From: an uncultured Acidimicrobiia bacterium
GTDB lineage: Bacteria; Acidobacteriota; Terriglobia; Versatilivoradales; Versatilivoraceae
Length of the DNA: 64,000 nucleotides
Reading direction: 5' to 3'
NCBI GenBank assembly: GCA_963786955.1
Contig: CAWBAT010000005.1
Span: 256,001 to 320,000 of the forward strand
Each line of letters begins with the position of its first letter. Within the stretch, counting starts at the first letter, position 1. Below, in pieces: positions 59,895 to 62,680 of the stretch. Under the pieces are notes generated by a model, which ran no database searches, had not been told where the DNA came from, and saw nothing but the letters and a program-made list of their open reading frames with translations. Made by a program: the position numbers and the translations under genes.

Positions 59895-60857
59895 ATGACC
59901 ACCAAAGTCATCCTCAATGGCAATCGCTACCTGAAGGCCGACTTACACTGCCATTCTTATTTCAGTGGAAAGACCGCTCATGTGAAGGCCCTTGAGCCCA
60001 TGGACTGCTATTCTTCGCCGCAGGGAGTCTATAGACAGGCTAAAGCTCGTGGGATGGACCTTGTGACCATCACTGATCATGATTCCATCGACGGCTGTCT
60101 CGATTTCTTGGAAAAATTTCCAGAAAAATTGGACGAGGATTTCATTATCGGAGAGGAAGTCACTGCCCAACTTCCGGAGTTTGGATCTAAGGTTCATATC
60201 GCAGTCTATGATATTACCGAAACCCAACACCATGAGATTTCCCGTTTAAAAGCAAATTTTGATGAGTTGATCTTATTCCTTCGCTCGAATCGCATCCTCT
60301 ATGTGCTCAATCACACCTTTCACGGCTTTCCCAAACGCCAGCATGGACTCAAATTTCTGGAGAAGATGCTCGATTCGTTCGAGATTTTTGAAGGATTAAA
60401 TGGTGCCATCGGGCCCTGCCAAAACGGTGTGATTTCCCAAATGATTCAAAGATTTCCAAACAAGACGCTCGTAGCCGGCAGTGATTCCCATACTCTGGTG
60501 CGATTGGGTTCGTGCTTTACGTTAGGGCAGGGTGAGAATCGGCGAGAGTTCCTGCAAAGCCTGCGGACGGGAAGTGTTGCCATGGCAGGGGAAAGCGGCA
60601 GTTTCATCCATATCTTTGGCGATGCGATGGGAGTCTACCTGGCTTATTTCAGAGATGTGGCTTTCCGTAACCAGGTCCATCGCGAGTGGTCTATACCCAA
60701 AAAGGTCAGGAATGGGTTGGGCTGGGCAGGGTATTTGCCAGTCTTTTTCATACTTTCCCTTGCTTATGCCATTGTCTATGACCGGCTCGAAGCTCGAAAA
60801 TACCCCTACTATCGAGAACTCATGCAACAGGCGATGATTCGCCGAGGAGTGGGTTAA
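59895..60857 (+). CDS. PHP-domain metal-dependent phosphoesterase
   Basis: ADLHCHS, ITDHD, GEE, NH, GSDSH. Confidence 0.9.
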   Translation: MTTKVILNGNRYLKADLHCHSYFSGKTAHVKALEPMDCYSSPQGVYRQAKARGMDLVTITDHDSIDGCLDFLEKFPEKLDEDFIIGEEVTAQLPEFGSKVHIAVYDITETQHHEISRLKANFDELILFLRSNRILYVLNHTFHGFPKRQHGLKFLEKMLDSFEIFEGLNGAIGPCQNGVISQMIQRFPNKTLVAGSDSHTLVRLGSCFTLGQGENRREFLQSLRTGSVAMAGESGSFIHIFGDAMGVYLAYFRDVAFRNQVHREWSIPKKVRNGLGWAGYLPVFFILSLAYAIVYDRLEARKYPYYRELMQQAMIRRGVG

Positions 60858-60870
60858 ATTCAGCCTAGAA

Positions 60871-60928
60871 ACAAAAAAACCTGCCTCATCTGACCATATA
60901 ACAGAAAACTGGATGACAAGGCAGGTTT
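60871..60928 (-). terminator. Intrinsic terminator downstream of the micro-protein gene (possibly bidirectional)
   Basis: Minus strand AAACCTGCCTTGTCATCC...AGATGAGGCAGGTTTTTTTGTTT. Confidence 0.7.
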
Positions 60929-60944
60929 GAATGGTTCTGGGGTC

Positions 60945-61004
60945 TTATTTCTTTTTTGCTGCTTTCTTGGCTGGTTTCTTCGCCGCTTTCTTAGCTGTAG
61001 CCAT
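60945..61004 (-). CDS. 19-aa Lys/Ala-rich micro-protein MATAKKAAKKPAKKAAKKK (histone-H1-tail-like)
   Basis: AGGAAAGGAGG-AAAAA-ATG; repeats use varied synonymous codons; TAA followed by a terminator. Below the ORF-track size cut-off. Confidence 0.8.
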   Translation of the reverse strand: MATAKKAAKKPAKKAAKKK

Positions 61005-61130
61005 TTTTTCCTCCTTTCCTCAAAAATAAAGCAGAGAAAGTTCAAACCGTCAACCCAGGGGATTAGCACTTCAAAAGAGAGAAGAACAGGAACGAGTCAA
61101 ACGAGAGCTGGAGCATTTGAACTTGAGCAG

Positions 61131-61388
61131 TCAGGTCGCTTCTTTCTTCTTACCAGGAACTGCGGAGGATTCATCAGGCTCAACTTTTTCGGACGCAGCT
61201 GCCTTCCCCTCAGTTACCGGCTTCCCTTCCTTTGAACTTTCTTTTGCCTCCCTAAGTAACCTTTCTTCCTTCAAATAGCTTGTGATCAATTTGTTAACAA
61301 TCTTCTTGATGGAAGTCCTGTGACGAGTGGAACTCAACTTCAGTTCAATGTGATCCTCATCGTCAATCTCTACATTTATTTTTGCCAT
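61131..61388 (-). CDS. Ribbon-helix-helix (ParG/CopG-like) DNA-binding protein with charged C-terminal tail
   Basis: MAKINVEID beta-strand, followed by two helices DEDHIELKL / SIKKIVNKLITSYL. Confidence 0.7.
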   Translation of the reverse strand: MAKINVEIDDEDHIELKLSSTRHRTSIKKIVNKLITSYLKEERLLREAKESSKEGKPVTEGKAAASEKVEPDESSAVPGKKKEAT

Positions 61389-61395
61389 CAGGATA

Positions 61396-61482
61396 ATTGT
61401 ATGTTATTAGATAGCTACATATGAAAGTAGCTTAGTAATAAGATTCATACAAACTTATAATGCTACTTTTAGTATTTGTCAA
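61396..61482 (-). promoter_or_regulatory. Sigma70 promoter with palindromic operator-like repeats
   Basis: TTGACA (61482-61477), 17 bp spacer, TATAAG (61459-61454). AAAGTAGC/GCTACTTT inverted pair and a long palindrome at 61396-61452. Confidence 0.7.
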
Positions 61483-61891
61483 CAAAAATTTTAAGTTTGC
61501 TAACCTGTTTAATACATTTGTATTTTCACATCGACTCGCACGACAAAAACTTTAGTACAAAAATCTGTTTTTCCATGACACGTATTCAAGAATTTTCCTG
61601 GAGTGGAATTTGCGGCTTAAGCCGGTGGGCGACGTCCAGTTCAGGATGAAGCCCTCCTTCTCGATGCCGTCGAGGCCTAGGTCCGGCATGAAACATCAAT
61701 CAAATTTGGTGCCGGCGAAGGAATTGAAATTTCTTGAGGCGGAGAGGTGCGTCCTCATTGGACGCGAGCCTGAAGAAGCAAAAGATTTTTTAATCCAAAT
61801 CTTAATTCGTGCGATGAGTAATAGCAGTTAGGTCGCAGAGATAGAAGCGCCCAACGTAGATTTTTTGATCTAAGCTAGGTGCCGGGCAAGC

Positions 61892-62320
61892 ATGAATAAC
61901 CAGAAAATTAACATGGGTGTAGATAGGCGATCGGCTGACCGAGTCAATGACAACTCTTTGCTCGTGGTTGCAGGGAGATTGGTGGGGGGAGAAACCTTCA
62001 GTGAAATGACATCGATCCATGACGTGAGCACAGGGGGTATCTCTTTTTACTTAAACACTCTGTTGGGCGTTGGCGATCTCGTCGATTTGAGCATCTATAC
62101 GGAGAAATGGACCAGTACCGAAGCCGTCCCCCGTTACTATATCCAAGCGAGAGTGTTAAGGGTTTCACCCAATCTCCATAGTAAGAACCAATTTTTTGTC
62201 GCTGCCGAGTTCGCCAGCAACTTTGTCAACTTAAGCTGTGAGGAAGATTTCGATTCGATCGTGCGGCATTTACAACAGGCCGTCGCAAACGACGAAAACC
62301 AGAAACAGCAGTACGAATAA
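61892..62320 (+). CDS. PilZ domain protein
   Basis: RSADR (RxxxR) and DVSTGG (DxSxxG). Confidence 0.82.
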   Translation: MNNQKINMGVDRRSADRVNDNSLLVVAGRLVGGETFSEMTSIHDVSTGGISFYLNTLLGVGDLVDLSIYTEKWTSTEAVPRYYIQARVLRVSPNLHSKNQFFVAAEFASNFVNLSCEEDFDSIVRHLQQAVANDENQKQQYE

Positions 62321-62338: not shown

Positions 62339-62680
62339 ATGTTTGAAGACAAGAGACGTCAAAAGAGGGTCTGCGTTAGTCTCCCGATTCGAGTAAAATG
62401 GTCTGACAACAAAGGCAATCGATTTGAAGAAGTAACCCGATCCATCGATGTCAGTGCCGACGGGGCACTTTTCCCCTTGAAGGTTCGCCTCACAGCGGGA
62501 ACTCTACTGGAGTTGTCATTACCCTTGCCAAGAAATTTTCAGAAGTCAGCCTACCCAAAACCAGTTTACGAAACCACCGGACTGGTGGTCCGAGTCGAAC
62601 AAACTGGCGATCCGAATAGCTACCGCATTGCTGTTCGTTTCCGGGCCGTGAATGTCAAACAGTACCGCGCCGAATCATAG
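62339..62680 (+). CDS. PilZ domain protein
   Basis: RRQKR and DVSADG; GGAG RBS. Confidence 0.88.
   Translation: MFEDKRRQKRVCVSLPIRVKWSDNKGNRFEEVTRSIDVSADGALFPLKVRLTAGTLLELSLPLPRNFQKSAYPKPVYETTGLVVRVEQTGDPNSYRIAVRFRAVNVKQYRAES

Follow-up and report, generated by a model that had tools for sequence, protein, structure and literature searches.

A conserved Lys/Ala/Pro micro-gene of Acidobacteriota encoding a candidate stand-alone counterpart of histone H1-type tails

Results

The micro-gene and its locus

The window analysed here, a 64-kb stretch of DNA taken as a whole, carries on its minus strand a very short open reading frame that starts with ATG at 61004-61002 and runs through 18 further codons to a TAA at 60947-60945 (Table 1). 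Its product, MATAKKAAKKPAKKAAKKK, is built of 9 Lys, 7 Ala and one each of Pro, Thr and Met (47% Lys), with no acidic residues and no hydrophobic residues beyond Ala and Met. The motif KAAK is found at residues 6-9 and 14-17, and PAKK at residues 11-14. The original prediction had read the Shine-Dalgarno (SD) site, the AAAAA spacer, the ATG, the codons and the TAA from the minus strand, and this transcription was confirmed base for base; on re-reading, its further statements that Ala uses all four codons and Lys both, and that Lys makes up nine of the 19 residues with no acidic residue among them, were also correct.

The SD site has the core AAGGAGG, a motif which is followed by an ATG after 4-10 nt at two places in the window and at 170 in the 5.65-Mb genome (93% complete). 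As the micro-gene has one of these two sites, its description as having one of the strongest SD sites in the window is a fair one. The stem-loop with a U tract that had been noticed after the reading frame is an intrinsic terminator with a 14-bp stem and a T7 tract; it starts 16 bases past the stop, with 60928-60915 pairing with 60890-60877 and the T7 tract at 60879-60873. A promoter and terminator consensus scan called neither a promoter nor a terminator for the micro-gene, and the terminator was missed by this simple scan because its hairpin loop is longer than 8 nt. When the whole 271-nt region was folded and compared with shuffled sequences there was no extra stability (z = 0.60), the meaningful part being the terminator hairpin only, and a search of 60500-61900 against Rfam with E-values up to 10 gave only chance-level matches, the best at 16 bits against cut-offs of 38-80, and thus no known RNA family. 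In a six-frame scan of the whole genome, no second micro-ORF of such composition was found, and a search of this genome for a SET-domain methyltransferase was negative.

The upstream neighbour encodes a small ParG-like ribbon-helix-helix (RHH) protein. An alignment of 10 such sequences, from at least 9 genera, has 45 invariant columns, the first 50 residues being almost invariant and the tail variable and charged. No ParA/ParF partner of this chromosomal ParG-like gene was seen in the neighbourhood examined. Beyond the RHH gene lie two stand-alone PilZ-domain genes, while the gene on the other side, past the micro-gene, is convergent with it.

Table 1. Features of the micro-gene locus and RNA-library contigs placed on it (positions in the window; contig depth is no measure of expression and does not rank genes)
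Feature	Position	Strand	Description
Intrinsic terminator	60873..60928	-	14-bp stem, 24-nt loop region, T7 tract
Micro-protein CDS	60945..61004	-	19 codons + TAA; product MATAKKAAKKPAKKAAKKK, net charge about +9
Shine-Dalgarno site AGGAAAGGAGG	61010..61020	-	AAAAA spacer, 5 nt before ATG; AAGGAGG in 12/12 family loci
Possible own promoter	61025..61053	-	TTGACG, 17-nt spacer, TTTATT; found by eye, graded weak
Conserved leader block GAACTTTCTCTGCTTTAT	61026..61043	-	Same place in L002-L012; candidate translation-control hairpin
ParG-like RHH gene	61131..61388	-	85 aa; upstream neighbour; Pfam PF09274, 27.9 vs 21.4 bits
Two tandem stand-alone PilZ-domain genes	61892-62320, 62339-62680	+	Divergent from RHH gene; first one syntenic in 9/12 loci
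X3 contig	60400-60517		Depth 2.6, 6 other letters; PHP gene
X3 contig	60681-60908		Depth 4.7, 8 other letters; PHP gene 3' end
X3 contig	60945-61033		Depth 108, 1 other letter; 89 nt, whole ORF and SD
X3 contig	61004-61150		Depth 60.6, 2 other letters; leader, spacer, RHH 3' end
X3 contig	61121-61336		Depth 49.1, 3 other letters; RHH gene
X2 contig	60939-61224		Depth 7.4, 1 other letter; ORF, spacer, RHH 3' end (bridging)

Conservation and selection in the family

A DNA search of 41 related genomes returned 12 loci, and three further genomes were checked separately. In every one of the 12 loci, AAGGAGG, an ATG and a Lys/Ala/Pro reading frame ending in KKK and a stop are found in the same place and orientation, and the terminator hairpin with its T-run also keeps its place in all of them, its stem differing on both arms between loci. 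The SD, ATG, frame, stop and terminator are likewise kept in the three further genomes, so that the conservation of SD, ATG and frame on which the original prediction had made the gene depend was found in 15/15 genomes. These are all the family genomes that bear the neighbouring RHH gene, and in the 12 loci the gap between that gene and the ATG of the micro-gene is 112-140 nt.

The 15 genomes fall into two length classes. In five of them (G000, G001, G002, G007 and G014) the peptide has 19 aa and is identical to that of the window, and in the other ten it has 36-43 aa. The 19-aa orthologs L001-L004 differ in 7 nucleotide columns, all of them (7/7) third codon positions, with no non-synonymous change. 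The peptide is under purifying selection. Synonymous bias of this kind was what the original prediction had proposed to look for, and variation that is synonymous only also bears out its view that the repetition is held at the level of the protein and does not come from DNA slippage. The 38-aa forms L005, L009 and L012 show 9-12 changes in third positions, 1-2 in first positions and none in second positions.

The two classes are related by an exact indel of 57 nt (19 codons) between two AAGAAA repeats, the 19-aa peptide corresponding to residues 1-6 plus 26-38 of the 38-aa form of L009. In the long forms (L005-L012, L085 and L086) an invariant internal Met opens a sequence that resembles a complete short-type peptide of other families, and because of this Met and the short-type second half the long form looks like a head-to-tail fusion of two units. 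Alternatively, the short form looks like the product of a repeat-mediated deletion of the long one. Genus g6 holds both 19-aa and long forms.

The opposite strand also has an open frame at this place, at 60931-61029 (plus), which would encode a Phe/Ala/Leu-rich small membrane peptide of 32 aa, and since both frames share their wobble positions the third-position test alone cannot exclude that this is the real gene. The frame is open in 12/12 family loci, as is expected from the Lys and Ala codons opposite, but neither its start nor its end is conserved: the three loci of the window's genus alone have an ATG, the others lacking a start or having a distant one. Moreover, no SD is conserved on the plus strand, whereas in every locus, and outside the family too, the SD, ATG, stop and T-tract terminator are all oriented for reading on the minus strand. 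We have thus rejected the antisense frame, to which we give almost no credence, and the minus-strand locus is in our view very probably a genuine gene.

The micro-gene was not found in 16 of the 31 genomes of its own family, namely 14 genomes of genus g4 (92-100% complete) and two of g8, by any of the searches made, which were by DNA, by profile and by the whole-ORF pattern described below in both genera, and by a C-terminal pattern in g4. As half of the family is without the gene, its role must be an accessory, dispensable one. Searching 201 genomes of the class with a long-form profile gave 7 matches, all in the own family, and missed the known positive G004; since this genome was present in the alignment, profile negatives are weak, and DNA patterns were used instead.

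Distribution across Acidobacteriota

The search across the phylum that had been proposed was made in 401 sampled Acidobacteriota genomes with a pattern for the whole ORF (ATGGC ... AARAAR ... GCN AAR AAR AAR stop), the reversed pattern serving as control. In-frame versions were found in 24 of the 401 genomes (25 matches), against 0/401 with the control. All 25 are 45-75 nt long, in multiples of three and with no internal stop, and thus encode 14-24 aa. They span at least eight families (f1, f9, f37, f43, f44, f61, f90 and f92), f9 being represented by 9 of its 33 genomes. Translation of 24 of the matches showed a GGAG-type SD before 21 of them and AAAGGTGGTGA before 3, with a strong hairpin downstream in all. 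Because the whole-ORF pattern is narrow, the 6% of the phylum's genomes recovered in this way is a floor.

A second pattern, for the C-terminal end (KK-x-A-KK-x-A-KKK-stop), matched 11 of the same 401 genomes and none with its reversed control. Ten of the 12 non-self matches are micro-ORFs of 20-23 aa, such as MATKKAAKKAAKKPAKKAAKKK from f9, each with a downstream hairpin and with an SD that is of the GGAG type in nine and of the AAAGGTGGTGA type in L053. The remaining two matches are to the ends of long proteins whose N-terminal half is acidic and whose C-terminal half is rich in Lys. Taking all relatives together, the micro-peptides are 14-43 aa long and vary by repeat units.

With respect to gene order, synteny with the RHH and PilZ genes had been proposed as a check. 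Within the own family, f1, the order PHP, micro-gene, RHH, PilZ is kept, with PHP in 10/12, RHH in 12/12 and PilZ in 9/12 loci, but this arrangement is not general: the f9 micro-genes lie beside genes for a thiolase and an RsmE-type methyltransferase, and those of f61 and f44 beside different ORFs. Because the neighbours in other families are unrelated, the micro-gene is an independent unit and its link with the RHH gene is a local one.

Two observations were made in passing. A 33-aa basic ORF with an SD (L033, G029:C43, minus strand) is Lys-rich in its first 20 residues; it was rejected as a member of the same family because of its non-repetitive C-terminal end. In addition, the metagenome-assembled genomes with a highly similar locus are titled Terriglobia, Acidobacteria/Acidobacteriota or 'Acidimicrobiia', of which the last label looks inconsistent.

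Traces in RNA libraries

Seventeen metatranscriptome runs, from many studies, contain 23-45% of the words sampled from the stretch 60860-61400 (541 nt, with the RHH gene included), and contigs from four of these runs were placed on the window. In run X3, a contig that spans the whole ORF and its SD is much deeper than those on the convergent PHP gene, the contigs on the spacer and the RHH gene lying in between, and in run X2 a single contig bridges the ORF, the spacer and the 3' end of the RHH gene (Table 1); such depths are no measure of expression and cannot rank genes, and DNA can occur in RNA libraries. Many loose-ended short contig pieces at 60948-60992, which come from Lys/Ala genes of other organisms, were not counted as support. 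Stretches that lack contig cover, among them the terminator region past 60939, were left out of the interpretation.

These contigs hint that the micro-gene unit is transcribed, possibly jointly with the RHH gene, and that its transcription is probably well above that of its convergent neighbour. The original prediction had suggested a highly expressed product. The part of this that concerns expression agrees with the RNA-library contigs that cover the ORF; as to a high level, contig depth lends it weak backing.

The leader and the promoter

The sole conserved block in the spacer between the RHH gene and the micro-gene is formed by the ~40 nt that immediately precede the ATG. The pyrimidine run of this block, CUUUCUUU, shows complementarity both to the SD (AAAGGAGG) and to Lys codons near the start of the ORF, and RNAalifold gives an 8-bp consensus helix of the leader block with the SD, at -4.75 kcal/mol. 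Since 0 of the 8 pairs covary, the anti-SD hairpin is kept as a candidate only; judging by its complementarity, the leader block may be an SD-masking hairpin or an RNA-thermometer-like element. As for the possible promoter of Table 1, its -35-like hexamer is confined to the three loci of the window's genus.

In f9, the micro-genes L063 and L066-L068 have a TATACA-type -10-like box ~90 nt upstream, and after it a leader that forms two hairpins. From one genome to another both sides of the stems change (ctgcaa...ttgcag, ctgcag...ctgcag), and this folded leader is different from that in the window's family.

A conserved leader block able to pair with the SD, together with the fact that some f9 genomes run the micro-ORF, the terminator and a downstream gene on the same strand, could also speak for a purely regulatory unit, in which the ORF is a leader peptide or Lys-codon sensor, or the whole unit a small RNA, and the peptide has no function. 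In the window, however, the next gene is convergent and there is nothing downstream to attenuate, and the downstream genes vary between families; a leader-peptide attenuator was rejected on these two grounds. Furthermore, in families that differ in their codon usage, selection acts on the amino acids, the Pro, the Thr and the C-terminal AKKK among them. Such a regulatory explanation is in our view highly improbable.

Annotation status of the peptide

The prediction that gene callers miss this gene was borne out, in that the ORF is conserved and selected while five long-form peptides of its relatives, looked up exactly, are absent from a collection of 15 billion proteins. The 19-aa peptide is too short for every protein tool used, the minimum of the Pfam scan being 20 aa, and family models were scored on long forms of 43, 39 and 38 aa. 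Against a cut-off of 40 bits, Pfam HC2 (PF07382) scored 17.1 with the 43-aa form and 12.2 with the 39-aa form and did not match the 38-aa form; the score of 17.1 reflects composition. No other Pfam family, Linker_histone included, scored with the long forms. In NCBIfam, NF038053 reached 14.7 bits against a cut-off of 80 with the 43-aa relative and did not match the 38-aa and 39-aa forms, NF038052 reached 11 bits against a cut-off of 135, and among the matches with E-values up to 10 of the three long forms there was no ribosomal protein family. Judged by every one of these models, the micro-peptide is a member of neither the Hc2 nor the H1 families.

A protein homology search with the 43-aa relative gave 863 candidates, none at E <= 0.01, a null result that says nothing on relatives because short low-complexity queries defeat HMMER. 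The 30 nearest clusters in the ESM Atlas consist of unnamed hypothetical proteins 32-38 aa long, and the low recognition value (1396) makes them a lead only. In those parts of the literature that came up, stand-alone Lys/Ala micro-genes are not described, and the tails of HupB, Hc2, AlgP and HBHA are. The micro-gene is best described as a minimal stand-alone variant of the known Lys/Ala/Pro tail sequence, with no domain attached. In its sequence traits it fits a working class, not a curated family, of stand-alone Lys/Ala polycation micro-genes, which is delimited by a length up to about 60 codons, a Lys content from 40% upwards, no acidic or hydrophobic core, an SD with ATG, a terminator of its own and coding conservation in relatives.

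Discussion

A stand-alone polycation as the proposed explanation

The best explanation for the micro-gene is, by analogy with known Lys/Ala/Pro tails, that its product is a nucleoid- or nucleic-acid-coating polycation, i.e. a stand-alone H1-type tail, a reading to which we give a probability of about one half. The gene would be expressed as a short mRNA, started at a promoter of its own or made by read-through of the upstream ParG-like gene, and this mRNA would carry little more than a very strong ribosome site, 19 codons and the intrinsic terminator. The product would be an unstructured peptide with a net charge of about +9 and the KAAK and PAKK spacing. A cytoplasmic location is inferred from the lack of a signal peptide and of any hydrophobic face or segment, and an abundant polycation in the cytoplasm would be expected to bind the phosphates of nucleic acids without sequence specificity. 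Non-specific electrostatic action, and not a fixed pocket, is also likely because the length varies by repeat units between 14 and 43 aa. The most probable target would be chromosomal DNA, on which the peptide may bring about charge neutralisation and compaction as HupB, Hc2, AlgP and histone H1 tails do, thus acting like a tail with no folded domain attached. From the composition and the analogy with Lys/Ala/Pro tails we infer polyanion binding, with the nucleoid as the target. A role in the nucleoid could be redundant, because the own genome also encodes a longer H1-like protein (see below).

By its composition the peptide could just as well bind RNA, ribosomes or polyphosphate. There is a known precedent in ribosomal proteins so small and basic that gene callers miss them, and a very small, very basic gene with a strong SD and its own terminator would fit a ribosome- or RNA-associated protein that binds rRNA or mRNA and not DNA, all the more as it adjoins the RsmE-type rRNA methyltransferase gene in some f9 genomes. 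Integral ribosomal proteins have fixed sequences, though, whereas the peptide is of low complexity and changes in length by repeat units; in addition, half of the own family seems to do without it, no ribosomal family came up in NCBIfam, and the neighbours are not consistently translation genes. We regard this explanation as an unlikely one, clearly less probable than a polycation on the nucleoid. Binding to another polyanion, such as polyphosphate granules, draws on the same argument from composition as DNA does, and also on the H1-like AlgP of Pseudomonas, which the available part of one report ties to the spacing of polyphosphate granules (PMC9239181). Nothing in the locus or its neighbours indicates polyphosphate metabolism, however, and we consider such a role improbable.

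A more general proposal can be put forward, which we hold only tentatively and with the odds against it: that Acidobacteriota make a genetically encoded oligolysine 'protein polyamine', an abundant stand-alone H1-tail peptide of ~15-40 residues with its own tightly signalled micro-gene. Charge on the nucleoid or on RNA would then be controlled by a further layer, unrecognised until now and invisible to current annotation, and the proteome and chromatin inventories of these organisms would all lack an abundant class of polycations. To our knowledge, the Lys/Ala/Pro 'H1-like' segments of bacteria are known solely from larger nucleoid or granule proteins, in which they form tails or repeats. A free-standing 19-residue version that occurs in at least eight families of a phylum dominant in soil and sediment alters this picture. 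It would also allow the action of an H1-type tail by itself to be studied in a minimal natural system, and it makes a case for lower length cut-offs, or an added model, in annotation pipelines.

Comparison with known Lys/Ala/Pro systems

A close likeness in sequence is to the C-terminal tail of mycobacterial HupB, whose motifs are named as PAKK and KAAK in the part of the literature seen here (PMC5676037). Like that tail, the micro-peptide consists of Lys, Ala and Pro with no acidic residues, and it holds KAAK twice and PAKK once. HupB carries its tail on a folded HU domain, whereas the micro-peptide is the whole product of a gene with its own SD and terminator; no HU domain is possible, because the entire ORF is the 19 codons between the SD-ATG and the TAA. 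The same holds in comparison with the eukaryotic linker histone H1, which has a central winged-helix globular domain for which the 19-aa product is too short.

The variation in length recalls chlamydial Hc2, which according to the section consulted has 165-237 aa and varies by pentamer repeats (PMC2848022). Both consist of short lysine-rich repeats that differ in number from strain to strain or from lineage to lineage, but the micro-protein is ~10 times shorter (19 aa, relatives 14-43), belongs to another phylum and lacks the context of a developmental cycle.

AlgP and the Burkholderia-type H1-like proteins (NF038053) have Lys/Ala/Pro repeats in common with the micro-peptide. These proteins are hundreds of residues long, whereas the micro-peptide is a stand-alone micro-protein.

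Within the bacteria studied here there is a further point of comparison, since a longer Lys/Ala/Pro protein is encoded in the own genome, outside the window (contig C8:34567-34995, plus strand). Such proteins were also observed in relatives (L035, L036, L031, L034 and L058), and they too have SD sites and terminators. These longer proteins, of about 100-245 aa, combine an acidic N-terminal half with C-terminal repeats of the KKAAKKP and PAKK types as in the micro-peptide, and they look like a second, larger H1-like family in these bacteria. The micro-gene is not a fragment of them, as it lies at another locus and forms a separate transcription unit.
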